IMG/VR virus record: IMGVR_UViG_2563366958_000011
Direction: 5' to 3' (one strand)
Source of the DNA: a virus
Lineage: Duplodnaviria; Heunggongvirae; Uroviricota; Caudoviricetes
DNA: 14,993 bases
A model generated the notes under the pieces. It saw nothing but the letters and a program-made list of their open reading frames with translations. It searched no databases and was not told the DNA's origin. Numbering within the stretch: the first letter of the stretch is position 1; each line of letters opens with the position of its first letter. Both the position numbers and the translations under genes were made by a program. Below are positions 1-14,993 of this stretch, in pieces.

Positions 1-1254
1 ATGCTGGAACAAATGGGCATTGCCGCGAAGCAAGCCTCTTATAAATTAGCGCAACTCTCCAGCCGCGAAAAAAATCGTGTGCTGGAAAAAATCGCCGATG
101 AACTGGAAGCACAAAGCGAAATCATCCTCAACGCTAACGCCCAGGATGTTGCTGACGCGCGTGCCAATGGCCTTAGCGAAGCGATGCTTGACCGTCTGGC
201 ACTGACGCCCGCACGGCTGAAAGGCATTGCCGACGATGTGCGCCAGGTGTGCAATCTCGCCGATCCGGTGGGGCGGGTAATCGATGGCGGCGTACTGGAC
301 AGTGGCCTGCGTCTGGAGCGTCGTCGCGTACCGCTGGGGGTTATTGGCGTGATTTATGAAGCGCGCCCGAACGTGACGGTTGATGTCGCTTCGCTGTGCC
401 TGAAAACAGGTAACGCAGTGATCCTGCGCGGCGGCAAAGAAACCTGTCGCACTAACGCTGCAACGGTAGCGGTGATTCAGGACGCCCTGAAATCCTGCGA
501 TTTACCGGCAGGCGCAGTACAGGCGATTGATAATCCTGACCGCGCGCTGGTCAGTGAAATGCTGCGTATGGATAAATACATCGACATGCTGATCCCGCGC
601 GGCGGGGCTGGTTTGCATAAACTGTGCCGCGAACAGTCGACAATCCCGGTGATCACTGGTGGTATAGGCGTATGCCATATTTACGTTGATGAAAGCGCAG
701 AGATCGCTGAAGCATTAAAAGTGATCGTCAACGCGAAAACTCAGCGACCGAGCACATGTAATACGGTAGAAACCTTGCTGGTAAATAAAAACATCGCCGA
801 TAGCTTCCTGTCCGCATTAAGCAAGCAAATGGCGGAAAGCGGCGTGACGTTACACGCAGATGCTGCTGCGCTGGCGCAGTTGCAGACAGGCCCCGCGAAG
901 GTGGTGGCGGTTAAAGCCGAAGAGTATGACGATGAGTTTCTGTCATTAGATTTGAACGTCAAAATCGTCAGCGATCTTGACGATGCCATCGCCCATATTC
1001 GTGAACACGGCACGCAACACTCCGATGCGATCCTGACCCGCGATATGCGCAACGCCCAGCGTTTTGTTAACGAAGTGGATTCGTCCGCTGTTTACGTTAA
1101 CGCCTCTACGCGTTTTACCGACGGCGGCCAGTTTGGTCTGGGAGCGGAAGTGGCGGTAAGCACACAAAAACTCCACGCGCGTGGCCCGATGGGCCTGGAA
1201 GCACTGACCACTTACAAGTGGATCGGCATCGGTGATTACACCATTCGTGCGTAA
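1..1254 (+). CDS. proA: gamma-glutamyl phosphate reductase (glutamate-5-semialdehyde dehydrogenase), full length 417 aa
   Basis: ORF 1-1254 gives a 417-aa protein recognised from memory as enterobacterial ProA ([21 protein letters not shown] ... GIGDYTIRA). The window starts exactly at its ATG. Not verified by search. Confidence 0.96.
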
Positions 1255-1368
1255 ATAAAACCGGGTGATGCAAAAGTAGCCATTTGATTCACAAGGCCAT
1301 TGACGCATCGCCCGGTTAGTTTTAACCTTGTCCACCGTGATTCACGTTCGTGAACATGTCCTTTCAGG

Positions 1369-1444
1369 GCCGATATAGCTCAGTTGGTAGAGCAGCGCAT
1401 TCGTAATGCGAAGGTCGTAGGTTCGACTCCTATTATCGGCACCA
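1369..1444 (+). tRNA. thrW: tRNA-Thr (anticodon CGU), thrW-type; integration target of the downstream island
   Basis: 76 nt GCCGATATAGCTCAGTTGGTAGAGCAGCGCATTCGTAATGCG...GGTTCGACTCCTATTATCGGCACCA. Acceptor stem GCCGATA/TATCGGC, D-loop AGCTCAGTTGGTAGAGC, anticodon CGT in the loop, T-arm GGTTCGACTCC, encoded CCA. Confidence 0.95.
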
Positions 1445-1461
1445 TTCAAACATCTCCCCAA

Positions 1462-1545
1462 GTCTACTAAAGTCTTTCAAAACCCCTTATAATCCGCGTA
1501 TTAAAGCCCCGTTCGTCTTTTGACGTCTACTAAAGTCCCTCAAAA
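1462..1545 (+). repeat. two 21-bp direct repeats (gtctactaaagtcYYtcaaaa) between tRNA and int; probable integrase arm-type binding sites of attL
   Basis: Copies at 1462-1482 and 1525-1545, 19/21 identical, 63 bp apart. Located between the tRNA 3' end (core-type site) and the int start. Confidence 0.55.
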
Positions 1546-1609
1546 TCTACGGTCAGATGGGGGTACTTATGGGGGTATTTGCTGTTCGGTTTAGTGGAGG
1601 TACCCCCAA

Positions 1610-2824
1610 GTGAAACTCAATGCCCGTCAAATAGACACAGCCAAGCCAAAAGAGAAGGCTTACAAGCTGGCCGATGGTGGCGGTTTGTATCTCTTGGTAA
1701 AACCTAATGGAGGTAAATACTGGCGACTTAAATATCGTGTAGCTGGTAAAGAGAAGCTATTGGCACTAGGTGTTTATCCTGAGGTTACTCTAGCCGATGC
1801 TCGGGCAAAACGTGAAGATGCGAAAAGAGGTATCGCTGGTGGTATCGATCCGATGGAAGCGAAACGAGAGGAAAAGATTGCCCGGGAAACGCAGTTAAAC
1901 AACACCTTCAAAGATATTGCCCTTGAGTGGCACAGCAGCAAATTAAAAAAATGGTCTGCTGGTTATGCTTCAGACATCCTCGAAGCCTTCAACAAAGATG
2001 TGTTCCCTTACATTGGCAAAAAACCCATCGCCGAAATCAAACCACTTGAACTTCTGAATGTGCTGCGTCGCATCGAGGGGCGCGGTGCTACAGAAAAAGC
2101 CAAAAAAGTGAGGCAACGGTGCGGGGAAGTTTTCCGCTATGCAATAGTCACTGGTCGCGCAGAGTATAACCCTGCACCAGACCTTACTAGCGCGATGCAA
2201 GGCCATGAATCTAATCATTACCCTTTCCTTACAGCCAAAGAATTACCTGATTTTTTCAAGGCATTGTCCAGTTACTCAGGAAGCGCATTGGTTGTTATGG
2301 CGGCTCGTCTACTGATTATCACCGGCTTGCGGACTGGCGAACTACGTGGCGCATTATGGGATGAAATTGATTTCAACAAGGCTATCTGGGAGATACCCGC
2401 TTCACGTATGAAAATGCGGCGGCCTCATATTGTGCCATTGTCTGAGCAGGCTCTTTCGCTTATTGGGAAGATTAGAGAAATAACAGGCAATTACCCTCTT
2501 ATGTTTCCCGGGCGCAATGATCCAAGGAAAACAATGAGCGAGGCCAGCATAAACCAAGTGTTTAAGCGCATTGGCTACGCTGGACGTGTAACTGGTCATG
2601 GGTTCCGGCACACTATGAGTACGATTTTGCATGAGCAGGGCTATAACACTGCGTGGATAGAAACGCAGCTCGCTCACGTTGATAAGAACTCAATTCGTGG
2701 CACATACAACCATGCGCAATATCTGGATGGAAGGCGGGAGATGCTTCAATGGTATGCCGACTATATGGATTCTCTCGAGCATGGCGGAAATGTGGTGCAT
2801 ATGGTGTTTGAAAAACACGCATGA
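1610..2824 (+). CDS. int: P4-type tyrosine integrase (site-specific recombinase), 404 aa
   Basis: GTG start at 1610 with GGAGG at 1596-1600. N-terminus KLADGGGLYLLVKPNGGKYWRLKYR...LGVYPEVTLADAR matches the arm-binding domain pattern of P4-family integrases. C-terminal catalytic signature present: R (RTGELR), H-x-x-R (HGFRHT), Y (RGTYNHAQY). Sits directly 3' of a tRNA. Confidence 0.93.
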   Translation: MKLNARQIDTAKPKEKAYKLADGGGLYLLVKPNGGKYWRLKYRVAGKEKLLALGVYPEVTLADARAKREDAKRGIAGGIDPMEAKREEKIARETQLNNTFKDIALEWHSSKLKKWSAGYASDILEAFNKDVFPYIGKKPIAEIKPLELLNVLRRIEGRGATEKAKKVRQRCGEVFRYAIVTGRAEYNPAPDLTSAMQGHESNHYPFLTAKELPDFFKALSSYSGSALVVMAARLLIITGLRTGELRGALWDEIDFNKAIWEIPASRMKMRRPHIVPLSEQALSLIGKIREITGNYPLMFPGRNDPRKTMSEASINQVFKRIGYAGRVTGHGFRHTMSTILHEQGYNTAWIETQLAHVDKNSIRGTYNHAQYLDGRREMLQWYADYMDSLEHGGNVVHMVFEKHA

Positions 2825-2890
2825 AACAACTGGACAAGTATACAGAGGTTTACTAAAGTATAAGGGAGTAGATTGATAAAAACTCACAGA

Positions 2891-3220
2891 GGATTGCTAT
2901 TTAACAGTTAGCCATGGAGAAGGGCAATCGCTCTTTTAACAACGAAGATGGAATCTTCTACGCAGCTGAAAAGCTGGATGCTCTTTAACAGCCTTTGGTG
3001 CTTTTCTGATGCAGGAAAGAATAGGGATACATGCACCTTTACAATGCATGTAATGATTCATCCATGAGGCTGCGGAGCGCTGACAAAGCGCAATTGCTCT
3101 TTAACATTGATGTGGGCGGGATGGTTCGTCCCGCAGTGACCGATAGATTTCTATCGGGAAACATACAATGATTCAAATATGAATCTACGGCGCTGACAAA
3201 GCGCAATTGCTCTCTTGCCT
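2891..3220. repeat. intergenic repeat/palindrome array: five GCTnTTTAACA-like motifs, an imperfect ~111-bp tandem duplication and several perfect palindromes
   Basis: Motifs near 2891-2907, 2922-2943, 2977-2993, 3088-3109 and 3199-3220. Exact 24-mer gcgctgacaaagcgcaattgctct at 3077-3100 and 3188-3211. Palindromes gcggga-N7-tcccgc at 3115-3133, cgataga-ttt-ctatcg region at 3140-3157, gattca-aata-tgaatc at 3170-3185. Confidence 0.6.
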
Positions 3221-3475
3221 GCCCACCATGCCCTGAAAAAGGGCGTTCTTTAAAACTACTGGATGTCACGCCTAATAGCGTGATCCTGCCGAAATGCAGG
3301 GTAGCTCTACCCTTGTGGAGCAAACAAACCAAAACAATCTGACTATCTTTTATAAAAGACCGCAATATGTTTTTCATATTGTGGTCTTTGGCGTATTCGA
3401 CATTTGACGCAAATAAAACTCTCGCCATTCGTTGCAGGAGGGGGTTATTGCGTCATTAGTACAGGATATTAATAA

Positions 3476-3679
3476 ATGGCTAATTACAATTCATTAATTC
3501 GTCTCTCTGAAGTTCAAAGGCGAACTGGTTATAGCAAAGCATGGATTTATCGTCTTATTAGTCAGGGGAGGTTCCCTAAACAGGTAAAAATTGGAAGTCG
3601 GGCAATTGCTTTTGTTGAGTCTGAAATAGATGAATGGATTGAGAAGTGTATATTAGAATCTAGAGACGAGGTGGCCTGA
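3476..3679 (+). CDS. alpA: AlpA-family phage/island transcriptional regulator (excisionase-like HTH), 67 aa
   Basis: Sequence LIRLSEVQRRTGYSKAWIYRLISQGRFPKQVKIGSRAIAFVESEIDEWI matches the AlpA/prophage regulatory protein pattern (HTH then a conserved W/E tail). AGGA about 10 nt upstream of the ATG. Confidence 0.85.
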   Translation: MANYNSLIRLSEVQRRTGYSKAWIYRLISQGRFPKQVKIGSRAIAFVESEIDEWIEKCILESRDEVA

Positions 3680-4110
3680 TGGAAAAGAAAAACCGCCCAT
3701 TACAGGCGGCTAATTCAGATATTCGTGTATCTGATGTTACGCCCCTTACAAAATCCCTTCAAGCACCAAAGCGCACACCGAAAAAGCATCGTGCCAGAGT
3801 CTATATGCTGCGTACTGGTATAGAGGGATGGACAGAAAATGACATTCTTCGCTACTGCCGTCTGTCTTCTGGTCGTAACTATGCAACAGAGTTAGAACGC
3901 CAGCTTGGAATCACTCTGGAGCGTATCGACGAAAAGAATCCTGATGGTATCGGAACACACCTTCGCTACCGTTTCTCCTGCCGTGGTGATGTTCTGAAAG
4001 TGATCACTCATGTTAACCATCTTGCGAACATAAATGATCACAACGGACTTTCTCAGCAGGAAATTGCCGACATTCTGAAACTCTACCCGGACGCGTTTAA
4101 CGCCGCCTAA
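3679..4110 (+). CDS. hypothetical protein, 143 aa, basic N-terminus; translationally coupled to alpA (TGATG overlap)
   Basis: ORF whose start overlaps the alpA stop by 1 nt. No family recognised from sequence alone. Confidence 0.65.
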   Translation: MEKKNRPLQAANSDIRVSDVTPLTKSLQAPKRTPKKHRARVYMLRTGIEGWTENDILRYCRLSSGRNYATELERQLGITLERIDEKNPDGIGTHLRYRFSCRGDVLKVITHVNHLANINDHNGLSQQEIADILKLYPDAFNAA

Positions 4111-4122
4111 CGGAGACTGAAA

Positions 4123-4956
4123 ATGAACATCGAAAAAAGCAGATTAATTTCTGAGGCCGCCCCTCATCTGAACGCCTCTCTGGGCACAATTAACGGTAAT
4201 GAATTTGCCGCAATTGTCCCGGTTATTCCTGGTCATATCGGTGGGCGTGAAACCAATATTGTTAGCGCAAAAGCGTTACACAAAGCGTTGGGCGTGGGAA
4301 AAGACTTCTCTACATGGATCACTGATCGCATCTCTGAATATGACTTCACCATTGGGCACGATTACTCAGTCCATAAAACAATTTCCCCAAATTTGGGGAA
4401 AAGCCCGAATGGCGCGGCTTACAGCAAGATAAAGCACTCTGGCAGACCCGGCAAAGACTATCTGTTAAGTGTCGGAATGGCGAAAGAACTGGCAATGATC
4501 GAACGCAATGATCAGGGTCGCGCTATCCGCCGTTATTTCATCCAGTGCGAGGAAGAATTACAGCGTAGCGTTCCTGAAATCGCCGCCCGCTATCGTCGCC
4601 AGCTAAAAGCCCGTCTCAGTGCCGCAAACAACTTTAAGCCAATGTGCGATGCGCTGAATATGGCCCGTGCCGAGATGGGTAAAACGACGCAGCAACACCA
4701 CTACACAAACGAGAGCAATATGATTTCTCGTATCGTTCTTGGTGGGCTAACTGCTAAGCAGTGGGCGCGGATAAATGGCTATTCTGGCGAACCTCGCGAC
4801 CATATGAACGCAGAACAGCTTGAGCACCTCTCATATCTCGAAAGCACCAATATCACGTTAATTGATATGGGCATGGAATATGAGCAGCGCAAAGGAGAAC
4901 TCACCCGCCTGTCGCAACGCTGGCTCGCCAAGCGTCTGGAGGCGGTCCATGTTTAA
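4123..4956 (+). CDS. phage antirepressor-like protein (AntA/AntB-type N-terminal region), 277 aa
   Basis: GGAG SD 7 nt upstream. Segment SAKALHKALGVGKDFSTWITDRISEYDFTIGHDY and following LSVGMAKELAMIERNDQGRAIRRYFIQCEEEL resemble the AntA/AntB antirepressor N-terminal domain as I remember it. C-terminal 130 aa unassigned. Confidence 0.6.
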   Translation: MNIEKSRLISEAAPHLNASLGTINGNEFAAIVPVIPGHIGGRETNIVSAKALHKALGVGKDFSTWITDRISEYDFTIGHDYSVHKTISPNLGKSPNGAAYSKIKHSGRPGKDYLLSVGMAKELAMIERNDQGRAIRRYFIQCEEELQRSVPEIAARYRRQLKARLSAANNFKPMCDALNMARAEMGKTTQQHHYTNESNMISRIVLGGLTAKQWARINGYSGEPRDHMNAEQLEHLSYLESTNITLIDMGMEYEQRKGELTRLSQRWLAKRLEAVHV

Positions 4957-5131
4957 GCCGACAGGAACACCACAACCTCAAAAACGCTACAAAGATGCCC
5001 ACGGAGCACTCGTTACTGTCGAAAGCGTGTCTCACAACCGAGTGACGTTTTATCGCGACGGGTATCAATCGCCATGCGTACAACCGCTGGCGCGCTTCAT
5101 GAAGGAGTTCGCGGAGGTTAACAAATGCTAA
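4949..5131 (+). CDS. small hypothetical protein, 60 aa
   Basis: ATG at 4949 with GGAGG at 4938-4942. Start overlaps the upstream stop (ATGTTTAA). Its stop overlaps the next start. Confidence 0.5.
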   Translation: MFKPTGTPQPQKRYKDAHGALVTVESVSHNRVTFYRDGYQSPCVQPLARFMKEFAEVNKC

Positions 5132-5598
5132 CCGTCCAGAAGAAGATATTTTCACTGGCTGGTATGTCACCAAAATCCAGCAATATGACAGCAAAGTCTG
5201 GCATTAATACAGCAGATACAAGCAAAGTTTATCATTTTCTGGTGGTAGGAGCGGATGCCTTAACTATGTCAGAAATTACGGTCGATGGTGTTAGCGTTGA
5301 GAAGGTCAGCGGCTGCGCCAGAGAATTTCTGGTCGTAGATGGCTTTCTCTGCTCGCGTAGTGACTCCACAAAAACCTTCGTCCATACGCGCGACGTTAAC
5401 GAAATGAGCGCGATGTATTGTGCATCTGGTGCTTCCAATACTGAGTTTTCGGAGTCCATAAAAAAGAGCTTGCCGTTATGCGGCAACACGGTTTATGGTT
5501 ATAAGGCACCTCATAAAACGGGTGCCGGGATTGGCGTCCTGAAAATTCTGAAGGCGACATATGACGCGCCGGGTGATGCTGCCAACTTACTGATTTAG
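5125..5598 (+). CDS. hypothetical protein; last 8 codons and stop are supplied by the IS1 left end, so the native 3' end is interrupted
   Basis: ATG 5125 with GGAGG at 5113-5117, coupled to the upstream gene (ATGCTAA). Frame enters IS1 at 5572 and terminates at the IS1 TAG (5596-5598). Native C-terminus unknown. Confidence 0.5.
5563..5571. repeat. IS1 target-site duplication, left copy (GACGCGCCG)
   Basis: The identical 9-mer recurs immediately after the IS1 right end at 6340-6348. Confidence 0.9.
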
Positions 5599-5626
5599 TG
5601 TATGATGGTGTTTTTGAGGTGCTCCA

Positions 5627-5902
5627 GTGGCTTCTGTTTCTATCAGCTGTCCCTCCTGTTCAGCTACTGACGGGGTGGTGCGTAACGGCAAAAGCACCGC
5701 CGGACATCAGCGCTATCTCTGCTCTCACTGCCGTAAAACATGGCAACTGCAGTTCACTTACACCGCTTCTCAACCCGGTACGCACCAGAAAATCATTGAT
5801 ATGGCCATGAATGGCGTTGGATGCCGGGCAACAGCCCGCATTATGGGCGTTGGCCTCAACACGATTTTACGTCACTTAAAAAACTCAGGCCGCAGTCGGT
5901 AA
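5627..5902 (+). CDS. insA: IS1 InsA (zinc-finger transposition regulator), 91 aa
   Basis: [22 protein letters not shown]...CSHC zinc-finger N-terminus; canonical InsA. Confidence 0.95.
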
Positions 5903-6324
5903 CCTCGCGCATACAGCCGGGCAGTGACGTCATCGTCTGCGCGGAAATGGACGAACAGTGGGGCTATGTCGGGGCTAAATCGCGCCAGCGCTGGCTGTTT
6001 TACGCGTATGACAGGCTCCGGAAGACGGTTGTTGCGCACGTATTCGGTGAACGCACTATGGCGACGCTGGGGCGTCTTATGAGCCTGCTGTCACCCTTTG
6101 ACGTGGTGATATGGATGACGGATGGCTGGCCGCTGTATGAATCCCGCCTGAAGGGAAAGCTGCACGTAATCAGCAAGCGATATACGCAGCGAATTGAGCG
6201 GCATAACCTGAATCTGAGGCAGCACCTGGCACGGCTGGGACGGAAGTCGCTGTCGTTCTCAAAATCGGTGGAGCTGCATGACAAAGTCATCGGGCATTAT
6301 CTGAACATAAAACACTATCAATAA
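5821..6324 (+). CDS. insB: IS1 InsB frame (transposase made as an InsAB' fusion by -1 frameshift at the A6C site)
   Basis: ORF in the -1 frame relative to insA, overlapping its 3' end. AAAAAAC slippery motif at 5878-5884. Coordinates are from the first in-frame ATG of the ORF track. Confidence 0.9.
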
Positions 6325-6339
6325 GTTGGAGTCATTACC

Positions 6340-6348
6340 GACGCGCCG
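6340..6348. repeat. IS1 target-site duplication, right copy (GACGCGCCG)
   Basis: Exact 9-bp match to 5563-5571, directly abutting the IS1 right terminus. Confidence 0.9.
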
Positions 6349-6361
6349 AGCGTCTTTTTTT
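6340..6361 (+). terminator. putative intrinsic terminator (GACGC-GCCGA-GCGTC hairpin plus T7), into whose stem IS1 inserted
   Basis: 5-bp stem, 5-nt loop, then TTTTTTT at 6355-6361. The TSD equals the 5' arm and loop of the hairpin. The stem is short, so confidence is modest. Confidence 0.4.
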
Positions 6362-6369
6362 ATGTCGTA

Positions 6370-6408
6370 GGTCTGACTCACCCATTTTTTGGGCGTTGGT
6401 GTATAATC
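6370..6408 (+). promoter_or_regulatory. putative promoter of the small-gene/primase operon (consensus -10 TATAAT at 6402-6407)
   Basis: Perfect TATAAT hexamer about 160 nt upstream of the first SD-preceded gene. No convincing -35 identified. Confidence 0.35.
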
Positions 6409-6563
6409 CAGCGCCTTTGTCAATCAATGGTGGCTCAGGCGGGGGCTTCTTCGGAAGCGCCGGTATCCTTCAGAGCCGGTTACGCCAACCCTGTCTGGGC
6501 TACCACCAGCGAAATTGGCGTTTCCGGTGGTAGCGTAACCTGCTATCTGAAGGAGGCTGCCAC
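6409..6563 (+). promoter_or_regulatory. structured 5' leader (possible regulatory RNA) upstream of the first small gene
   Basis: Hairpin gcttc-UUCG-gaagc at 6445-6458 and a 9-bp stem gctaccacc/ggtggtagc at 6499-6507 and 6526-6534 with an 18-nt loop. Ends at the AGGAGG SD (6551-6556). Confidence 0.3.
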
Positions 6564-6758
6564 ATGCTGGCTACTACCCCTACCCAAAAACCGCAATTTA
6601 TCTGGATTATCGCCGCAGTTCGCCGCGATTGCCCGACAATTACCGCCAAAATTCATCATATTGCTGCCGAGTCTGAACGCGATGCTCGCCGTTCTCTGGT
6701 GCGCGATCACGTCTGCTTTTTTGCTGGTCGTATCCGCATGGAGGTGGCACATGATTAA
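6564..6758 (+). CDS. small hypothetical protein, 64 aa (first gene of coupled operon)
   Basis: AGGAGG 7 nt upstream of ATG 6564. Stop overlaps the next start (ATGATTAA). Confidence 0.65.
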   Translation: MLATTPTQKPQFIWIIAAVRRDCPTITAKIHHIAAESERDARRSLVRDHVCFFAGRIRMEVAHD

Positions 6759-6969
6759 AACCTACGATGTGCATATGGATCCCCTCGAACGCACAAGCCA
6801 GATCATCACACTGACAGAAGTGATTAACGACATTCTGGTGAGCAACTCTCCCTCACGAGACGAAAGGCTGAAGGCGTTACTCGCGATATTGGATCTCGCC
6901 GTTCGTGACGTTCATTTCCTGCTGGAAGGTGGCGAAATGCCAGGAAAAACGGGGGCAACCAATGAATAA
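6751..6969 (+). CDS. small hypothetical protein, 72 aa
   Basis: GGAGG at 6740-6744, 6 nt before ATG 6751. This is the C-terminal part of track ORF 6427-6969; the short start is preferred because of the SD and the start/stop overlap. Confidence 0.65.
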   Translation: MIKTYDVHMDPLERTSQIITLTEVINDILVSNSPSRDERLKALLAILDLAVRDVHFLLEGGEMPGKTGATNE

Positions 6970-7156
6970 CTCAATTAATACCCCTCGCCTTACGTCCGCA
7001 CTTCAATTAATCGAGCAAGCAGCGGCTGTCCTGGTTGCTGTCAGTCTTTCGGCTGAAGAAATGGACGCTGCTGATGTCGTGGATGCGATTAAAGCGTGCT
7101 CATCTTTGGTTAACGATGCCCGTGCCGAGCTGGTAATTCTTGGGGGTGAAAAATGA
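6962..7156 (+). CDS. small hypothetical protein, 64 aa
   Basis: ATG 6962 overlaps the upstream stop (ATGAATAA). An internal start of track ORF 6905-7156 was chosen to avoid a 60-nt overlap with the upstream gene. Confidence 0.6.
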   Translation: MNNSINTPRLTSALQLIEQAAAVLVAVSLSAEEMDAADVVDAIKACSSLVNDARAELVILGGEK

Positions 7157-7416
7157 ATATCAACTTAATTTATCGTCATCCGTGTGAGCTGGAAATTGAA
7201 TCATTGCTGGGGCGTGAAGAGCCATATCCAGACTCATTCACTCCCGCAGATTGCGCGACTGAACGGCTTACCAGAGCGCGCACAGGTCTGGTTCATGTGA
7301 TGAATGAGATTGTTCCCTCGGTGGGAGGGGAACAGGCGACAGTAATCAATAGCTGGCTACAAAAAGTTACCTCCCTGATAGATATCGGTTTAATCGATGT
7401 GGAGAGTGCGAAATGA
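7153..7416 (+). CDS. hypothetical protein, 87 aa
   Basis: ATGA start/stop overlap with the upstream gene. Uninterrupted ORF. Confidence 0.65.
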   Translation: MNINLIYRHPCELEIESLLGREEPYPDSFTPADCATERLTRARTGLVHVMNEIVPSVGGEQATVINSWLQKVTSLIDIGLIDVESAK

Positions 7417-7634
7417 CCAACATCCAGCTCATTGAAGCGCAATGTCGCATCGAACAGGTTCAGACTGTTTTAGGGTTCTGGCTTGAAGGGGCCAGCCCCA
7501 GCAACAGAGACAAGTTAATGATTGGCGCGGTTATGTCACTGCTCAATGGCGTACCAGAAGCTATTCAGGAAGCGGACGAATTGTTGGGCAAATATGAGTT
7601 ACAGAATCATTCAGGCGAGGCGAAACATGAATAA
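7413..7634 (+). CDS. hypothetical protein, 73 aa
   Basis: ATGA overlap with the upstream gene. Uninterrupted ORF. Confidence 0.65.
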   Translation: MTNIQLIEAQCRIEQVQTVLGFWLEGASPSNRDKLMIGAVMSLLNGVPEAIQEADELLGKYELQNHSGEAKHE

Positions 7635-8229
7635 TTTCTTAACTTTCCATGCAGAAGCAACGCCTGACGGCGTAAACATCATGTACCGCAGCAACGATGG
7701 CATGACAGAACGCGTTGAGGCCGTCTCATATATTGATGCCGTAAATCGTCTGGATGCCGGGGATTATGACGATAAACCAGATGAAGGTATGTCAATACAT
7801 CTCGCTATTGCCGATGGCGGCAACCAGGGATATTTCGATTACACATCACAGCATAACGTCATTATGTGGAGATGGCTGATCGCAACAGTATTCATGCTGG
7901 AAATGAGAGAGGAAAACGGCACTGTCAGCATCATTGATGATACTGGCAATCCTTCCGAAGTGGCTGTTTATTCCAACGGCATCGTCGCCATGCCGCTGTA
8001 TCCAGTAGCAGAGCGCCTCGCTATGGCAAACAACATTGAGGGCGCGATGATAGAACGTTTTGGCATCGAGTCTGGCACAGAACGCGCCATCATTTTCTAC
8101 AGAGCCATGATGGATGTGGAACAAGGAGCACTGACTCCATTTGGTCGTGAAACGCTTGCTGAACTTCACAACAGCTTTATAGCTGAACTGAATGAAAACG
8201 GCATGCCAGCGGAACCAGTGACGCACTGA
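7627..8229 (+). CDS. hypothetical protein, 200 aa
   Basis: ATG 7627 overlaps the upstream stop (ATGAATAA). The longer track ORF from 7522 would overlap the previous gene by 112 nt, so the coupled start is preferred. Confidence 0.6.
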   Translation: MNNFLTFHAEATPDGVNIMYRSNDGMTERVEAVSYIDAVNRLDAGDYDDKPDEGMSIHLAIADGGNQGYFDYTSQHNVIMWRWLIATVFMLEMREENGTVSIIDDTGNPSEVAVYSNGIVAMPLYPVAERLAMANNIEGAMIERFGIESGTERAIIFYRAMMDVEQGALTPFGRETLAELHNSFIAELNENGMPAEPVTH

Positions 8230-8239
8230 GGATGGAGCC

Positions 8240-8581
8240 ATGATTACTAAAAATTTCCGACTGAATGCGCTGGCAAATAAGTATGCGTCGGCACTGTATA
8301 ACCACATTACCTCCACCAGCGGCGGGGACTATTTCATGGTTGATGCGGACGGCGAGGCCGTACGTGTGGAAATCGTCAATGGAGTAAAAGGCGTTCGCAG
8401 CCTGATCGATAGCTACACACTGGCAGCCATGAAAGTGTTCTACCCGCAGTGGGAAACCGTGGGGATCGAGCTTCTTGAGCGTTGCGTCACTAAGGACGGA
8501 TTGACTGACGTCGGGCGTGAGATATGGCAAAGCATGGTTAATGACATGGGCGCAACTGTAGCGGGAGGTTCTCATGCGTGA
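8240..8581 (+). CDS. hypothetical protein, 113 aa
   Basis: GAGG at 8228-8231, 8 nt before ATG 8240. Stop overlaps the next start. Confidence 0.65.
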   Translation: MITKNFRLNALANKYASALYNHITSTSGGDYFMVDADGEAVRVEIVNGVKGVRSLIDSYTLAAMKVFYPQWETVGIELLERCVTKDGLTDVGREIWQSMVNDMGATVAGGSHA

Positions 8582-8945
8582 AAATGCAGAAATGGCGCTT
8601 AGCTCCGCAATCGGAGAGCAGGTGGCAAAGATTGCTGGTGCTGTGTGGATTCATAACCTTCATTCTACTGGTGAAGAGAAAATGGCAATTCAGACGCCAG
8701 AGGGACGCACCATTACTACATCTCTGAAGCCGTCAGATGTTTGTGATCTGATTTGCGCATTCATGTACCCAGCAATGAGGACTGTCCACGGCGATAAGTG
8801 GAAACTTGCGACAACCGCTGAATTTGATATGTGGCTAAACAATGATGGCATGCTGACTGATTACGGAATAACCAAGTGGCAGATGCTGGTTAGCCATATC
8901 GCAAACGCTATAGACCACGTGGGGTACGGTGATGCGAAACATTGA
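8574..8945 (+). CDS. hypothetical protein, 123 aa
   Basis: ATGCGTGA overlap with the upstream gene. 3' end overlaps the primase start by 14-17 nt. Confidence 0.65.
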   Translation: MRENAEMALSSAIGEQVAKIAGAVWIHNLHSTGEEKMAIQTPEGRTITTSLKPSDVCDLICAFMYPAMRTVHGDKWKLATTAEFDMWLNNDGMLTDYGITKWQMLVSHIANAIDHVGYGDAKH

Positions 8946-11688
8946 TCTTATCCGTCAGGTTATCAGTGCGTCTGAAAACAACTGGCCTCATGTGCTGGGC
9001 TGCCTGAACATAAATGTCCCTGACTCTCCGCGCCGTCATGCTCCCTGCCCTGCATGTGGGGGCAAAGATCGATTCCGGTTCGATGACAACGGGCGCGGTA
9101 GCTTCATCTGTAATCAGTGCGGCGCTGGTGATGGGCTGGATTTAATTAAACGCGTAAATAACTGCGACACAACAGAGGCGGCGCTTCTTGCCGCTGATGT
9201 TCTGGGTATTGATTACCGGACAACGGAAACACCAGAAGCCACCAGCCAGAAACGGGAACAACTGGAAACCGAGCGCCAGCGACGCGAACAGGAGCGCCTG
9301 AAAAGGGCAGAGAAGGACGAACAACAAAGACGGGATACGTTTTCCCGTCAGTTTGATGACATGCGCAGAAAGGCTGTAAACGGCAAATCTGATTATCTGG
9401 TTGCGAAAGGGGTAGGTGATTTTACATTCCCCGTGTTGCCCGATGGATCTCTGTTGCTGGCGCTGGTGGATAAATCCGGCGCAGTCACAGCAGCACAGAC
9501 TATTACATCACATGGTGAAAAAAGACTCCTGACAGGTTCAGCAAAGCGGGGGGCATATCACGCCATAAACGCGCCAGAAACAACACAGAGCATCTTAATC
9601 GCAGAAGGGCTGGCAACGGCATTATCTGCCCATTTAATTCGTCCAGAGGCGCTGACAGTGGCGGCGATTGATGCCGGGAACCTGTTATATGTCCCCCAGG
9701 TACTGCGGGATAAATTTCCTTCAGCACAAATCATCATTGCTGCGGATAACGACCACAGCGAAGGAAGACAAAACACGGGGAGAATAGCAGCAGAAAAAGC
9801 AGCTTTATCTGTTTCTGGATGGGTGGCATTACCCCCGACAGATCACAAAGCAGACTGGAATGATTACCACCAAAAACACGGCATTAAATGCGCCACAGAA
9901 GCGTTCAATAAGTCAATGTACCAACCACAGGGTAATGGCGTGAAACATGAGCCACAGACCATTGAGGGAAGCGATTTTAAGGTTATGGATACCGACCCAC
10001 TGAAACCAAGAATAGAAAGCCGCGAGGATGGTATTTATTGGGTATCTCCGAGAGCTGACAGCCAGAGTGGAGAAATCATCAATAACGAAAGCTGGTTATG
10101 TTCTCCGTTAAGCGTTATCGGTACTGGCAGAGACGATAAAGACCAGTATCTCATTCTTCGCTGGCTGTCGTTTGGTTCTGAAACGCCGACAACCGCTGCC
10201 ATTCCACTGGCTGATATTGGTGAACGTGAAGGATGGCGCACACTTAAAGCTGGTGGGGTAAATGTCACGACCAAAAGCAGCCTCAGAGCAATACTGGCAG
10301 ACTGGCTACAACGCAGTGGCTCTCGTGAATTGTGGCGTGTTGCTCATGCCACTGGCTGGCAATGCGGAGCGTACATCATGCCTGATGGGGAAATCATCGG
10401 AACACCTGAAAATCCTGTGCTGTTCAGCGGGAGAAGCTCAGCCGCAGCCGGATATACCGTCTCAGGGAGCGCGAAAAGCTGGCGTGATAACGTGGCGCGT
10501 CTGGCCTTTGGTAACTATTCAATGATGACCGGGATCGGCGCAGCACTGGCAGCGCCATTGATTGGGCTGGTGGGCGCTGACGGGTTCGGCATTCATTTCT
10601 ATGAGCAGTCGAGCGCAGGTAAGACCACCACGGCAAACGTGGCGAGCAGCTTATACGGCAACCCTGATTTACTGCGGCTGACGTGGTACGGAACCGCGCT
10701 GGGGCTGGCAAATGAGGCCGCCGCCCACAATGACGGACTAATGCCGCTTGATGAAGTTGGTCAGGGCGCTGATCCTGTCAGCGTTTCACAGTCTGCCTAT
10801 GCGTTATTTAACGGTGTAGGGAAACTGCAAGGCGCTAAAGATGGTGGAAACCGGGATCTAAAACGCTGGCGTACAGTGGCAATCAGCACCGGAGAAATGG
10901 ATTTAGAAACATTTATCGCTACTTCCGGGCGAAAAACCAAAGCCGGGCAACTGGTGCGACTGCTGAATATTCCGTTGAGTAAAGCAGTACGCTTTCACGA
11001 TTACCAGAACGGAAAACAGCACGCAGACGCACTGAAAGACGCTTACCAGCATCACCACGGCGCGTCCGGGCGTGAGTGGATTAAATGGCTGGCAGACCAC
11101 CAGCAACAGGCTATTAAAACCGTTCGTGACTGCGAAAGCAGATGGAGAAGCCTGATCCCATCCGATTATGGTGAGCAGGTTCACCGTGTAGCCGCGCGAT
11201 TTGCCATTCTGGAGGCCGCATTGTTGTTAGGCGAGGTTGTAACAGGCTGGGATGCTCAGACATGCCGTGATGCGATACAGCACAGCTATAACGCATGGTT
11301 GCGCGAGTTCGGCACAGGTAACAAAGAGCATCAGCAGATTATTGAACAAACGGAGGCATTTCTTAATGCCTATGGGCTTAGCCGTTTTGCACCATTTCCA
11401 TACAGCCCGGCAGATTTGCCCATCAAAGATTTAGCCGGATACCGTCAGCGTGGAGAACATGACGAAAGCCCAATGATTTTCTACACATTCCCGGCCACAT
11501 TTGAAAAGGAGATCGCATGTGGTTTCAACGCAAAACAGTTTGCTGAAGTGTTGAAAAAAGCCGGGATGCTAACCCCACCAAACAGCGGTCGTGGATACCA
11601 AAGAAAATCACCACGTATTCAGGGACGACAAATAAACGTTTATGTACTCAATTACCAGCCAGGAGATTATAACTCATCTGAAGAATGA
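8929..11688 (+). CDS. DNA primase-helicase (P4 alpha-like): zinc-ribbon + TOPRIM primase + Walker-type NTPase, 919 aa
   Basis: N-terminal CPACGG...RFRFDD...CNQCG zinc ribbon. TOPRIM-like motifs ILIAEG and IIAADNDHSEG. C-terminal Walker A-like QSSAGKTT and Walker B-like MPLDEVGQ. Track start is GTG 8929; ATG 8932 is the likelier start. Confidence 0.9.
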   Translation: MMRNIDLIRQVISASENNWPHVLGCLNINVPDSPRRHAPCPACGGKDRFRFDDNGRGSFICNQCGAGDGLDLIKRVNNCDTTEAALLAADVLGIDYRTTETPEATSQKREQLETERQRREQERLKRAEKDEQQRRDTFSRQFDDMRRKAVNGKSDYLVAKGVGDFTFPVLPDGSLLLALVDKSGAVTAAQTITSHGEKRLLTGSAKRGAYHAINAPETTQSILIAEGLATALSAHLIRPEALTVAAIDAGNLLYVPQVLRDKFPSAQIIIAADNDHSEGRQNTGRIAAEKAALSVSGWVALPPTDHKADWNDYHQKHGIKCATEAFNKSMYQPQGNGVKHEPQTIEGSDFKVMDTDPLKPRIESREDGIYWVSPRADSQSGEIINNESWLCSPLSVIGTGRDDKDQYLILRWLSFGSETPTTAAIPLADIGEREGWRTLKAGGVNVTTKSSLRAILADWLQRSGSRELWRVAHATGWQCGAYIMPDGEIIGTPENPVLFSGRSSAAAGYTVSGSAKSWRDNVARLAFGNYSMMTGIGAALAAPLIGLVGADGFGIHFYEQSSAGKTTTANVASSLYGNPDLLRLTWYGTALGLANEAAAHNDGLMPLDEVGQGADPVSVSQSAYALFNGVGKLQGAKDGGNRDLKRWRTVAISTGEMDLETFIATSGRKTKAGQLVRLLNIPLSKAVRFHDYQNGKQHADALKDAYQHHHGASGREWIKWLADHQQQAIKTVRDCESRWRSLIPSDYGEQVHRVAARFAILEAALLLGEVVTGWDAQTCRDAIQHSYNAWLREFGTGNKEHQQIIEQTEAFLNAYGLSRFAPFPYSPADLPIKDLAGYRQRGEHDESPMIFYTFPATFEKEIACGFNAKQFAEVLKKAGMLTPPNSGRGYQRKSPRIQGRQINVYVLNYQPGDYNSSEE

Positions 11689-11711
11689 GCTTCTTCATGT
11701 GCGTAGAAAAG

Positions 11712-11826
11712 GTGTTGGTTCAGTTGGTTCAGTTGGTTCAATTTGTAAAGAGTATTGTTTTATAAGGATTTTATTCTTTTTATTGAACCAACACTGAACC
11801 AACAACACGGTATTTTGAACCAACAC
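11712..11826. repeat. iteron cluster, putative replication origin: three tandem GTTGGTTCA and three inverted TGAACCAAC(AC) copies flanking a 43-bp AT-rich spacer
   Basis: Direct 9-mers at 11714-11722, 11723-11731, 11732-11740. Inverted copies at 11784-11792, 11795-11803, 11816-11824. AT-rich spacer 11741-11783. Immediately 3' of the primase-helicase gene. Confidence 0.6.
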
Positions 11827-12144
11827 AATGTGACTGAATTGATGCGCACAACACCTGGCTGGCATCAGAGAGTGTTTTACGAGACTTTCGTAAAATCCTG
11901 TGTACAAGGGCGTGACGTTTTTGAAAGTGAGCACTACGAAATTTTCGTAGTTCAGAAAACAGCCTCTGAGAAGTTGTTATGCCTGTTCAGCAAACCATCC
12001 GCATAGCTGATCGCGAATCAAATTACCAATGGAGCCAGAAGCAAGGGCAGAACTGAAAAGCGCCTGCCGTGAAGAGTAATGCGACACCATAAATATAGTT
12101 TTTAGAGTCCATAAAAAACCTGTCAAAACCTGACACACAGAACG

Positions 12145-12178
12145 ATGCCACCAGCTACTGAGCGGTGGCATTTTTTTT
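12145..12178 (+). terminator. rho-independent terminator (7-bp GC-rich stem, extended by 3 inner pairs, followed by T8)
   Basis: tgccacc (12146-12152) pairs with ggtggca (12164-12170); inner pairs 12154-12156 with 12161-12163. TTTTTTTT at 12171-12178. Confidence 0.7.
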
Positions 12179-12197
12179 GTGCTATTTGTTTCATATT

Positions 12198-12246
12198 TTG
12201 CAATTACGATGATGAATATTGCGATTTGTGAAACTATAATAACTGT
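12198..12246 (+). promoter_or_regulatory. putative promoter/operator of the small RHH-like gene (-10 TATAAT at 12235-12240; inverted repeat GCAAT-N13-ATTGC at 12200-12222)
   Basis: Consensus -10 hexamer about 35 nt upstream of the ATG. The adjacent inverted repeat could be an operator. Confidence 0.35.
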
Positions 12247-12273
12247 TGTTTTATACAGTTCTAAGGGGGCGTT

Positions 12274-12435
12274 ATGGCTATTTCAGTAAAGCCGGTATTG
12301 ATAAGTGAGAAGCAAATGGAAGCGATAAAGAAAATTCAGGAAGAGCAGCGTAAAAAATCAGGAATTGGAGTAGCGCCAACTCTGCATGAAATTGCACGAG
12401 GGTTAATAGATAAGGCGCTGGCAGGCTGTATGTGA
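12274..12435 (+). CDS. small protein, 53 aa, predicted ribbon-helix-helix-like DNA-binding fold (below the ORF-track size cutoff)
   Basis: AAGGGGG SD at 12263-12269, ATG 12274, stop 12433-12435. MAISVKPVLISEKQMEAIKKIQEEQ...APTLHEIARGLIDKAL shows a strand-helix-helix pattern; the fold assignment is inferred. Confidence 0.55.
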   Translation: MAISVKPVLISEKQMEAIKKIQEEQRKKSGIGVAPTLHEIARGLIDKALAGCM

Positions 12436-12451
12436 AAATGGATGGCATCGC

Positions 12452-12808
12452 ATGGAACTAAAATTTATTGATAACCCTGTGCGATTACAGGCCTTTCTTA
12501 ACGAGCCAGGCAATACCGAAAATATTGTTGAGCCGGGGCACACGTACTACATCAAGCCTGATGCGGTATATCTCGGCATCTACGAAGGATTAGTGCTGGC
12601 TGGCGTTCATGAAGTGCGTAACTTCTGGCATAGCGTTGTTGAATGCCATGCGGTGTACGACCCCGGATTCCGTGGTGAATATGCACTGCAAGGACATCGA
12701 TTATTCTGCAAATGGCTTCTCGAAAACTCACCATTCCTTAACAGCATTACCATGGTTCCTGACACCACGAAATACGGACGGGCAATTATCCGTTTGCTTG
12801 GCGGGTGA
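12452..12808 (+). CDS. hypothetical protein, 3' end truncated by IS1 copy 2 (stop codon lies inside the IS1 left end)
   Basis: ORF begins 17 nt after the RHH-like gene. TGA at 12806-12808 belongs to the IS1 terminus GGTGATG, so the native C-terminus is missing. Confidence 0.55.
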   Translation: MELKFIDNPVRLQAFLNEPGNTENIVEPGHTYYIKPDAVYLGIYEGLVLAGVHEVRNFWHSVVECHAVYDPGFRGEYALQGHRLFCKWLLENSPFLNSITMVPDTTKYGRAIIRLLGG

Positions 12809-12858
12809 TGCTGCCAACTTACTGATTTAGTGTATGATGGTGTTTTTGAGGTGCTCCA

Positions 12859-13134
12859 GTGGCTTCTGTTTCTATCAGCTGTCCCTCCTGTTCAGCTACT
12901 GACGGGGTGGTGCGTAACGGCAAAAGCACCGCCGGACATCAGCGCTATCTCTGCTCTCACTGCCGTAAAACATGGCAACTGCAGTTCACTTACACCGCTT
13001 CTCAACCCGGTACGCACCAGAAAATCATTGATATGGCCATGAATGGCGTTGGATGCCGGGCAACAGCCCGCATTATGGGCGTTGGCCTCAACACGATTTT
13101 ACGTCACTTAAAAAACTCAGGCCGCAGTCGGTAA
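12859..13134 (+). CDS. insA: IS1 InsA, copy 2
   Basis: Translation identical to copy 1 InsA. Confidence 0.95.
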
Positions 13135-13556
13135 CCTCGCGCATACAGCCGGGCAGTGACGTCATCGTCTGCGCGGAAATGGACGAACAGTGGGGCTATG
13201 TCGGGGCTAAATCGCGCCAGCGCTGGCTGTTTTACGCGTATGACAGGCTCCGGAAGACGGTTGTTGCGCACGTATTCGGTGAACGCACTATGGCGACGCT
13301 GGGGCGTCTTATGAGCCTGCTGTCACCCTTTGACGTGGTGATATGGATGACGGATGGCTGGCCGCTGTATGAATCCCGCCTGAAGGGAAAGCTGCACGTA
13401 ATCAGCAAGCGATATACGCAGCGAATTGAGCGGCATAACCTGAATCTGAGGCAGCACCTGGCACGGCTGGGACGGAAGTCGCTGTCGTTCTCAAAATCGG
13501 TGGAGCTGCATGACAAAGTCATCGGGCATTATCTGAACATAAAACACTATCAATAA
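13053..13556 (+). CDS. insB: IS1 InsB frame, copy 2
   Basis: Translation identical to copy 1 InsB. Confidence 0.9.
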
Positions 13557-13566
13557 GTTGGAGTCA

Positions 13567-14316
13567 TTACCCAAATGCCGCAGCCCCCTCTGGATCCGCC
13601 TTTAACATTTGCGCGTATTGATTGTAATTCTGCATTGCGGCTGTTGGTGCATATGCTGACGTTAACGCATTTGCTCGGCTAATATCCTGCCCTCTCGCCT
13701 GAAGTGCTTCTCCGGCTTGATTGCTGCGGATCGTCTCTGCCAACTTGCCACGCTCAATATCCCGACCTTCCATTCGATCTTTGATATCGAAGTACTTCTC
13801 ATGACCGAGAGAAAACAGTGCCATACTACCAGCAAGCCGCTGGAATCCCTGTGGATCATTAACATGCATTTCGGCAACAGACTCAGGAGAAATTCCCAAA
13901 CGACGCATTTCATCTTCGTTATCTGCTATGAATTTTCCAAATGCCCCAGTTCCGAGCGAAGATGCGATTTGAGCACTAGTCGCAAGATGACCAATAGAAT
14001 TTCTCTGGTCGTCATCAATAAAGCCCATCCCTTTCTGAACGCTTTCAAATTCTTCTGGATACTCAGAAATAAGACTGCGCATTTTGTTTCTGTCTCCAGA
14101 CTCAAAAGCCCCGGCATATGCTTTCTGAAACTCTGCTTTACGCTGTTGTTGACGTGCCTGCTGATTAATCTCAGCAACGCCTCTTAGCCCCTGTAGCGCC
14201 ATTAAACCTACGTTTGGCTGCTGCTGATACTGCACAGGCTGAGGAACGGAAGAACGAGGAGCATTATCATTTTGCGGTGCCATGCTAGGCAGCCCGCCAA
14301 GTTGCCATGTCGCCAT
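13567..14316 (-). CDS. hypothetical Gln/Pro-rich protein, 249 aa; stop codon supplied by the IS1 right terminus, so probably C-terminally truncated
   Basis: Minus-strand ORF whose TAA (13567-13569) lies inside the IS1 end sequence. Start overlaps the upstream gene by 1 nt (TAATG), indicating an operon. Confidence 0.6.
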   Translation of the reverse strand: MATWQLGGLPSMAPQNDNAPRSSVPQPVQYQQQPNVGLMALQGLRGVAEINQQARQQQRKAEFQKAYAGAFESGDRNKMRSLISEYPEEFESVQKGMGFIDDDQRNSIGHLATSAQIASSLGTGAFGKFIADNEDEMRRLGISPESVAEMHVNDPQGFQRLAGSMALFSLGHEKYFDIKDRMEGRDIERGKLAETIRSNQAGEALQARGQDISRANALTSAYAPTAAMQNYNQYAQMLKADPEGAAAFG

Positions 14317-14993
14317 TAGAATCCAAGCCCCCCAACAAGACCAATAAGCCCACCACCAATAGCCCCGGCGACATTACCTATACCCGGAACAACGGAACCA
14401 AGTTGCGCACCCGCTAAAGCGCCTGATGCCGCCCCACCAATACCACGCGCAAGACTGGATGGCTGCTGCGCCTGACCTGCACGAATAGCGCCAAGCCCCT
14501 GCAAGAGTTGTCCGGTATTATTGGCGTAGTTTTGCCCTGCTGTTGCCTGCCCTGATGCCGCATTCATCCCGACATTTAGCAGGTTTCCATAATTTTGCAT
14601 TTGCCCACTGAGCCAATTGTTATAAAGCATGGGCGCAATGGAAGATAACTGGTTACTGGTAGCTGTTGAGCCAAGCCCCCCGGTAGCTTCTGCTGAGACA
14701 AGGTTCTGATAACGGGCCTGATCTGCCTGTGTTTTATATAAACCAGAACCAAAGAAATCATTCGCGGCTTTATTCTGCCCTTCCAGAGTCATCAGTCCTT
14801 GTAGTTGTTGTAAAGCAGGCAATCCGACTTCTGCATACGGCTTGAGATTATTCATCACCGTATTCCACTGCTCGCGCTGCAAATCAATTGCCTGCTGCTG
14901 GGCCTTCGCCTGAGCTTTAGAGGCACCACCATCACCGCCTTTTTCGTATACGGCACGATTGAGATGTTTATAAGCTATATGGGTAATTAACAT
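14316..14993 (-). CDS. hypothetical Gln/Asn/Gly-rich protein with a C-terminal glycine-zipper hydrophobic segment; N-terminus may lie beyond the window edge
   Basis: Minus-strand ORF reaching the window end. C-terminus GIGGAASGALAGAQLGSVVPGIGNVAGAIGGGLIGLVGGLGF looks like a membrane-inserting glycine zipper. Possibly a phage ejection or structural protein, or a bacteriocin-like protein; family not recognised. Confidence 0.55.
   Translation of the reverse strand: MLITHIAYKHLNRAVYEKGGDGGASKAQAKAQQQAIDLQREQWNTVMNNLKPYAEVGLPALQQLQGLMTLEGQNKAANDFFGSGLYKTQADQARYQNLVSAEATGGLGSTATSNQLSSIAPMLYNNWLSGQMQNYGNLLNVGMNAASGQATAGQNYANNTGQLLQGLGAIRAGQAQQPSSLARGIGGAASGALAGAQLGSVVPGIGNVAGAIGGGLIGLVGGLGF

Follow-up and report, generated by a model that had tools for sequence, protein, structure and literature searches.

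The locus raises the question of why only one of two identical IS1 copies in a single genomic island carries a target-site duplication, and whether the other copy marks a place where DNA has been lost and joined to foreign sequence. The window (the whole 14,993-nucleotide stretch of DNA that was analysed) starts inside proA and carries a genomic island integrated at thrW. Besides the integrase and the primase (Table 1), the island content comprises an AlpA-type regulator, AntA, a DUF4222 protein, an ash-family gene and several small ORFs. The primase gene, in which the window has a private SNP (9694C), is followed by a P22-like gene block consisting of DUF2824 (in the gene 14 position), gp7, gp20 and gp16. 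In all references without the rearrangement described below, DUF2824, gp7 and gp20 lie downstream of the primase gene on the same strand.

Table 1. Features of the window, with the inverted segment delimited according to the reading considered very probable in the text.
Feature	Position	Strand	Remarks
proA	1-1254		Adjoins left end of island
tRNA-Thr(CGT)	1369-1444	+	Left end of island
Tyrosine integrase gene	1610-2824	+	Left end of island
IS1 copy 1	5572-6339	+	768 bp; simple insertion in ash-family gene
Intervening island segment	6340-12803	+	6,464 bp: ash 3' part, small ORFs, TOPRIM/DUF927 primase gene, DUF2824 5' part; native position
Primase gene	8932-11688		918 aa; Zn-ribbon, Toprim and DUF927 domains
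Truncated DUF2824 (P22 gene-14-like) ORF	12452-12808	+	117 native codons of 153
IS1 copy 2	12804-13571	+	768 bp; left boundary of inverted segment
Copy 2 insA ORF	12859-13134	+	Pfam Zn_ribbon_InsA and HTH_Tnp_IS1
Copy 2 insB' frame	13053-13556	+	Pfam DDE_Tnp_IS1
A6C -1 frameshift motif TTAAAAAAC	13108-13116	+	Intact in copy 2; at 5876 in copy 1
Truncated P22 gp20-like ejection-protein gene	13567-14316	-	Pfam Inj_translocase; 248 native codons of 472
In-window part of 1,534-bp inverted segment	13572-14993	-	Island's own downstream DNA
P22 gp7-like gene	14316-14993	-	Intact, 225 aa; inside inverted segment

Both IS1 copies lie on the plus strand with a start-to-start spacing of 7232 bp, and they are identical at 768/768 positions; perfect identity within a short-read draft scaffold is weak evidence when taken alone, and finished long-read relatives show 0-1 differences between IS1 copies. 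In size and terminal repeats copy 2 is an IS1: its IRL reads GGTGATGCTGCCAACTTACTGAT, its IRR terminates in ...AAGTTGGAGTCATTACC, and the inverted repeats of 23 bp match at 18/23 positions. The A6C motif is the -1 programmed frameshift signal of IS1, linking insA and insB'. Judged by their reading frames, both copies look functional, because the insA and insB' frames and the TTAAAAAAC motif are present in each.

Their flanks differ. Copy 1 sits between the two halves of a perfect 9-bp duplication, GACGCGCCG (5563-5571 and 6340-6348). At copy 2 a direct 9-bp duplication is absent: TGCTTGGCG on the left (12795-12803) and CAAATGCCG on the right (13572-13580) agree at only 4/9 positions. A hidden duplication of 8-10 bp, allowing for error, was ruled out as well, there being no shifted repeat. 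The preliminary description of this DNA was correct on this difference, as it was on an identical, directly oriented pair around 6340-12803. Its statement that copy 2 cuts genes on both sides holds for the plus-strand DUF2824 gene and for gp20, both of which are truncated. It had also placed the stop codon of the minus-strand gene in the right flank; that codon (13567-13569) lies inside the IS1 right end, outside the flank. On the other side, the final Gly codon and the TGA stop of the DUF2824 ORF are supplied by the IS1 left end.

The origin of the right flank was traced in E. coli SCU-172 (NZ_CP054353.1), the best-matching complete genome. Window positions 1-12803 without copy 1 match this genome in a stretch ending at 1107431. 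Positions 13572-14993 are 100% identical to SCU-172 1107535-1108956 on the minus strand, a match that begins 104 bp after the left break. Because the match is to the minus strand of the same region, copy 2 does not adjoin foreign DNA on its right. From an inverted right flank it further followed that an IS1 of opposite orientation, accompanied by the reverse complement of TGCTTGGCG, should lie about 100 bp outside the window.

Scaffold KE137071.1 of assembly GCA_000408425.1 (L021) is identical to the window (14,993/14,993 positions) and contains the predicted element. The first 112 bp of scaffold past the window are the reverse complement of the missing 3' end of DUF2824 (103 bp) and of the 9-bp target copy, so that this end of the gene is found, inverted, directly outside the window. 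These 112 bp end in ...GCGCCAAGCA; IS1(-) comes next, followed by GGGTGATTAATGGCT, with which the gp16-like gene starts, and by the remaining island. This third IS1 is in minus orientation and starts at window-equivalent position 15106 in both L021 and L004. It adjoins CGCCAAGCA (window-equivalent 15097-15105), the exact reverse complement of the copy 2 left flank. The target duplication is present, then, as inverted copies, one per element: TGCTTGGCG next to IS1(+) and CGCCAAGCA next to IS1(-). The search for a matching half-duplication on another IS1, which the preliminary description had proposed as a check, ended at a distance of only 112 bp from the window end. The same structure is seen in a second assembly, GCA_000408405.1 (L004/L009). 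The inverted orientation is read from two draft scaffolds, apparently of one sequencing project, and the third IS1, which lies outside the window, contains a 565-N scaffold gap.

Comparison with undisturbed islands gives the same picture. In the IS-free E. coli 042, TGCTTGGCG, CGGCATTTG and GGGTGATTA occur once each at the expected positions, and the TGCTTGGCG site is single-copy at this place in DUF2824 in 042 and also in L028. An in-silico reversal of the rearrangement took out copy 2 and one of the target copies, turned the 1,534-bp segment round and also took out copy 1 and its duplication. The product (13,551 bp) is collinear with SCU-172 at 99.9% and restores an intact 153-aa DUF2824 protein.

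Copy 2 is very probably one of two oppositely oriented IS1 elements between which 1,534 bp of the thrW island lie inverted. Its missing duplication reflects this rearrangement and is no argument against IS1 identity, because the duplication exists as an inverted pair shared with the third IS1. The earlier suggestion of a footprint of IS1-associated rearrangement, with inversion among the options listed, agrees with the third IS1 and its inverted half-site. The rearrangement that formed the left junction of copy 2 lost no DNA, because the gp16-like gene and the remaining island continue after the third IS1. At the level of sequence comparison, the inversion and the swapped half-sites can be regarded as demonstrated, and the same grade applies to the ancestral arrangement and the older deletion that emerge from the relatives.

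In the collection, 180 blocks list the junction that joins gp20 codon 248 to the right end of IS1. It occurs in an un-inverted island with IS1(-) and an intact DUF2824 gene in L002/L025, L003/L026, L005/L029, L006 and L028. From this distribution the two junctions of copy 2 differ in age, the right (gp20) junction predating the inversion. The arrangement with a single IS1, CGGCATTTG/IS1(-)/GGGTGATTA with intact DUF2824, is found in L002/L025 and L028, and its flanks form no duplication. On this comparison L028 and L002 represent the immediate ancestor of the window arrangement.

The one-IS1 state itself carries traces of an older event. In E. coli 042, GGGTGATTA occurs once and spans the gp20 stop and the gp16 start. 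In SCU-172, L023, L031 and L032 a full-length gp20 ending in GGGTGATTA is joined to the same end of IS1(-). The half-sites of the older insertion are split, as GGGTGATTA/IS1 in SCU-172 versus IS1/GGGTGATTA in L002 and the window lineage, which shows that an earlier adjacent deletion was the work of this same IS1.

These observations can be arranged in three steps. In the first, an IS1(-) would have inserted at the gp20/gp16 boundary and duplicated GGGTGATTA. This is the simplest reading, and a genome with both GGGTGATTA halves around IS1 was not seen among the genomes compared. In the second, in the lineage of the window, an adjacent deletion by this IS1 took about 670 bp of the gp20 3' end. 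The state before the inversion, which is seen in relatives, was primase, DUF2824, gp7 and truncated gp20, followed by IS1(-) and gp16. In the third, the resident IS1(-) may have undergone intramolecular replicative transposition in "trans" configuration, its ends attacking TGCTTGGCG in DUF2824 at a distance of 1.5 kb within one chromosome. Copying of IS1(-) by replication would yield a second, oppositely oriented IS1 (copy 2), the DNA between the two copies would flip, and the target would be duplicated as an inverted repeat, all in one step. Each IS1 would be left with one old and one new junction, and because of this neither would have a direct duplication. The adjacent deletion and the inversion creating copy 2 are supported by the comparisons among relatives.

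Whether the inversion took place in one step is a separate matter. Homologous recombination between inverted IS copies gives rise to chromosomal inversions in E. coli and Shigella. On a two-step route, IS1(+) would first insert into DUF2824 with a direct duplication of TGCTTGGCG, and RecA-dependent recombination with the inverted IS1(-) in truncated gp20 would then flip the 1.5 kb, giving exactly the observed structure. Both routes lead to one and the same end product, so that the structure alone cannot separate them. Several features of the locus are in keeping with two steps. IS1 flank swapping is extensive, as recombination between IS1 elements would produce: in L007 and L008 (finished genomes), L010 and L017 the right flank that goes with TGCTTGGCG/IS1(+) is another one, TAAGTTTTA from the ykgO side, and CGGCATTTG/IS1(-) has any of three right flanks among the relatives. 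Recombination between direct copies is documented in L018 and L014 (see below), and copy 1, at a distance of 7 kb, shows the duplication of a plain insertion. Against two steps, the route needs one event more, and an independent insertion would have to land only 1.5 kb from an oppositely oriented IS1. Its un-inverted intermediate with a direct duplication was not found in the long contigs read or in 5,426 RefSeq complete E. coli genomes, an absence that is weak evidence since few assemblies span IS1 copies. The two-step route is a serious possibility that falls somewhat short of an even chance.

A single step by intramolecular replicative IS1 transposition is given about an even chance. It is favoured because it needs one event fewer, because the same IS1 had made an adjacent deletion before, and because the intermediate was not found; the preference is weak, given how few assemblies span the IS1 copies. 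IS1 yields more simple insertions than replicative events, which counts against the one-step route. So does the presence of many possible donor IS1 copies in the genome.

It is unlikely that the inversion is an assembly artefact, that is, that the true genome is un-inverted, copy 2 being a simple insertion with a direct duplication, the old IS1(-) sitting in truncated gp20, and the 1.5-kb piece having been mis-oriented by the draft assembler. The two arrangements do not differ in the four IS1 junction sequences, so that linkage across a 768-bp repeat alone decides between them, and both the source and the sole other example are short-read draft scaffolds of one project with N gaps in IS1 copies. 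The arrangement is in no finished genome searched: junction-spanning searches of the 5,426 RefSeq complete E. coli genomes returned none of the left, right and partner junctions, and an exact-pattern scan for the left junction gave no match in a contig collection with one genome per species. Short metagenome contigs break at IS1 and give no orientation. Nevertheless, two separate assemblies that differ by a SNP agree on the orientation, and the source scaffold runs without a gap from one flank through copy 2 into the other. Mate pairs leaving a unique 1.5-kb segment should also give its strand unambiguously. In the L028 scaffold, whose accession and scaffold-name series are taken to indicate a shared project and pipeline, the neighbouring arrangement was assembled in normal orientation.

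The idea first put forward, that an IS1-mediated deletion or recombination took the rest of the island and fused copy 2 to unrelated DNA, would suit a copy without direct duplication between two truncated genes, and relatives do have deletions (the loss of about 670 bp of gp20; the L007 type, in which copy 2 abuts ykgO-side DNA), but it is almost certainly wrong, being refuted by the SCU-172 match, the source scaffold and the in-silico reversal: the right flank is adjoining DNA of the island itself in inverted orientation, the 3' end of DUF2824, the partner half-site and the genes from gp16 onward are all present in the source scaffold, and the reversed sequence is fully collinear with no missing bases.

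The inversion that remains the preferred reading has close parallels. It resembles the inversion "in trans" described for IS26 (He et al., 2015, PMC4471558; IS1/Tn9 listed in PMC9330008) in its pair of opposite IS copies bounding the inverted segment, its target duplication as an inverted repeat beside each IS with no direct duplication, and its single-IS ancestor with the same old junctions. Both the signature of such inversions and the ambiguity of their route have been described for IS26 (PMC4471558), and IS1/Tn9 is listed among the elements that make such deletions and inversions (PMC9330008). In contrast to IS26 in resistance plasmids, the element here is IS1, its target is 9 bp (8 bp for IS26), the setting is a chromosomal island and the single step is an inferred one. 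Inverted IS copies that recombine end up in this structure too and likewise exchange half-duplications; this process differs in needing a prior insertion with a direct duplication, a state not found here. The older event fits an IS1 adjacent deletion, with about 670 bp of the gp20 3' end missing beside the IS1 right end and the original duplication GGGTGATTA surviving alone on the other side. Turlan and Chandler are said to have described, in 1995, a replicative route for such IS1-promoted adjacent deletions. The rearrangement at the left junction of copy 2 differs from an adjacent deletion, as it lost no DNA.

The direct pair formed by copies 1 and 2 raises separate issues. In L018 (GCA_964044255.1) a single IS1 lies between the left flank of copy 1, GACGCGCCG, and the TAAGTTTTA flank, and the 6,464-bp module has been lost together with one IS1. 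L014 (GCA_964055605.1) has the same outer flanks and the same loss, its IS1 being about 7 bp longer than 768 bp. Judged by these flanks, the losses stem from recombination between direct IS1 copies in a sister arrangement and not in the window's own. The expectation that the bracketed segment of 6.5 kb would be prone to loss is thus borne out in natural isolates.

Movement of this segment as a composite unit, which had been suggested as well, was rejected. The unit made of copies 1 and 2 has GACGCGCCG and CAAATGCCG as outer flanks, with no 9-bp duplication. The 6.5-kb module is always in its native island context in the E. coli genomes compared, and an IS1-bounded copy was found in none of the plasmids or phages searched. 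The likeness to a Tn9-type composite transposon lies in the identical direct copies bracketing 6.5 kb and in the recombinational loss of the segment. The differences from Tn9 are the lack of a duplication around the whole unit, a passenger that is part of a native island, and the failure to find an IS1-bounded copy elsewhere. The direct bracketing of the module is incidental. Recombination between copies 1 and 2 is highly unlikely to turn the satellite-type replication module into a mobile replicon. A circle of about 7.2 kb, holding one IS1, the primase gene and a putative origin, might by analogy persist as a plasmid or re-insert through IS1; in this the hypothetical circle would resemble the translocatable units of IS26. 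A 12-kb circular record (NZ_CP148430.1) represents an IS-free relative of the island.

The IS1-bounded inversion is a known, textbook insertion-sequence rearrangement, an ordinary event in an already decaying island. An IS copy without a duplication at the edge of a window should not be read as DNA loss or foreign fusion; it is no proof of loss, because here the partner half-site sat 112 bp outside the window. IS1 flank swapping is relevant for synteny-based typing and for short-read assembly of these genomes. The region from the thrW island to ykg is a hot spot of such swapping in this E. coli lineage, where the effects of IS1 include inversions, adjacent deletions and loss of the replication module.

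The region spanning the thrW island and ykg is a hot spot for IS1 flank swapping: across loci L001-L031, the records of relatives compared with the window (matching positions 12795-13580 and beyond), identical IS1 junctions are found with partners that differ from genome to genome. Where CGGCATTTG is joined to IS1(-), the partner on the right is GGGTGATTA, GGATGATGG (within ecpC') or CGCTTTGCT. When GGGTGATTA is itself the left flank of IS1(-), it is followed by either GAATAAACG or GGTGCTGGG, and TGCTTGGCG joined to IS1(+) leads into CAAATGCCG or TAAGTTTTA. Another inversion, distinct from that of the window and extending from gp16 into the DNA downstream, occurs in L005/L029. At L014 10448-11222 (GCA_964055605.1), a lone IS1 is left after a deletion between copy 1 and copy 2; its length exceeds 768 bp by about 7 bp, which reflects an indel within the element or else a fault in the assembly.

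Two differences provide useful lineage markers. The first, 9694C, is a private SNP at the first base of primase codon 256 that occurs only in the source strain of the window. The second is an extra T at window position 12171, which the window shares only with a contig from a gut metagenome (L011) and with L004/L009, the other assembly of the inverted type. One relative (L002 and L015; OZ039268.1, ~1.40-1.43 Mb) harbors a Mu-like prophage that interrupts the 200-aa gene lying upstream of the island's primase gene; this prophage has Mor, GemA, Gam, transposase-like genes, tail-fibre genes and a Gin-like resolvase.

A satellite-type module, consisting of integrase, AlpA and primase, and a P22-like ejection-protein block (14/7/20/16) are combined in one island (window 12452-14993, continuing into the source scaffold, L021). 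The DUF2824 part displays 95-98% identity to podophages, for example vB_EcoP_Kapi1. A related element, NZ_CP148430.1 (L033), is a 12,152-bp circular record deposited as a "plasmid" of E. coli Z1323CEC0013. It contains AntA, DUF4222, an Icd-like protein, PerC, an integrase and a primase region that is ~97% identical, and carries neither IS1 nor the P22-like genes. This record may represent an excised or episomal form of the satellite-like island family.

Regulatory-looking spots of the window hold short direct repeats (table below), among which the 21-mer pair may correspond to arm-type sites.

Short direct repeats in the window and their genetic context
Repeat	Positions	Location	Identity between copies
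24-mer	3077-3100, 3190-3213 (and 2911-2934)	between the integrase and alpA genes	two identical copies
21-mer pair	1462-1482 and 1525-1545	between tRNA-Thr and the integrase gene	
22-mer	5444-5465 and 12097-12118	within the ash gene and 3' of the primase gene, respectively	91%
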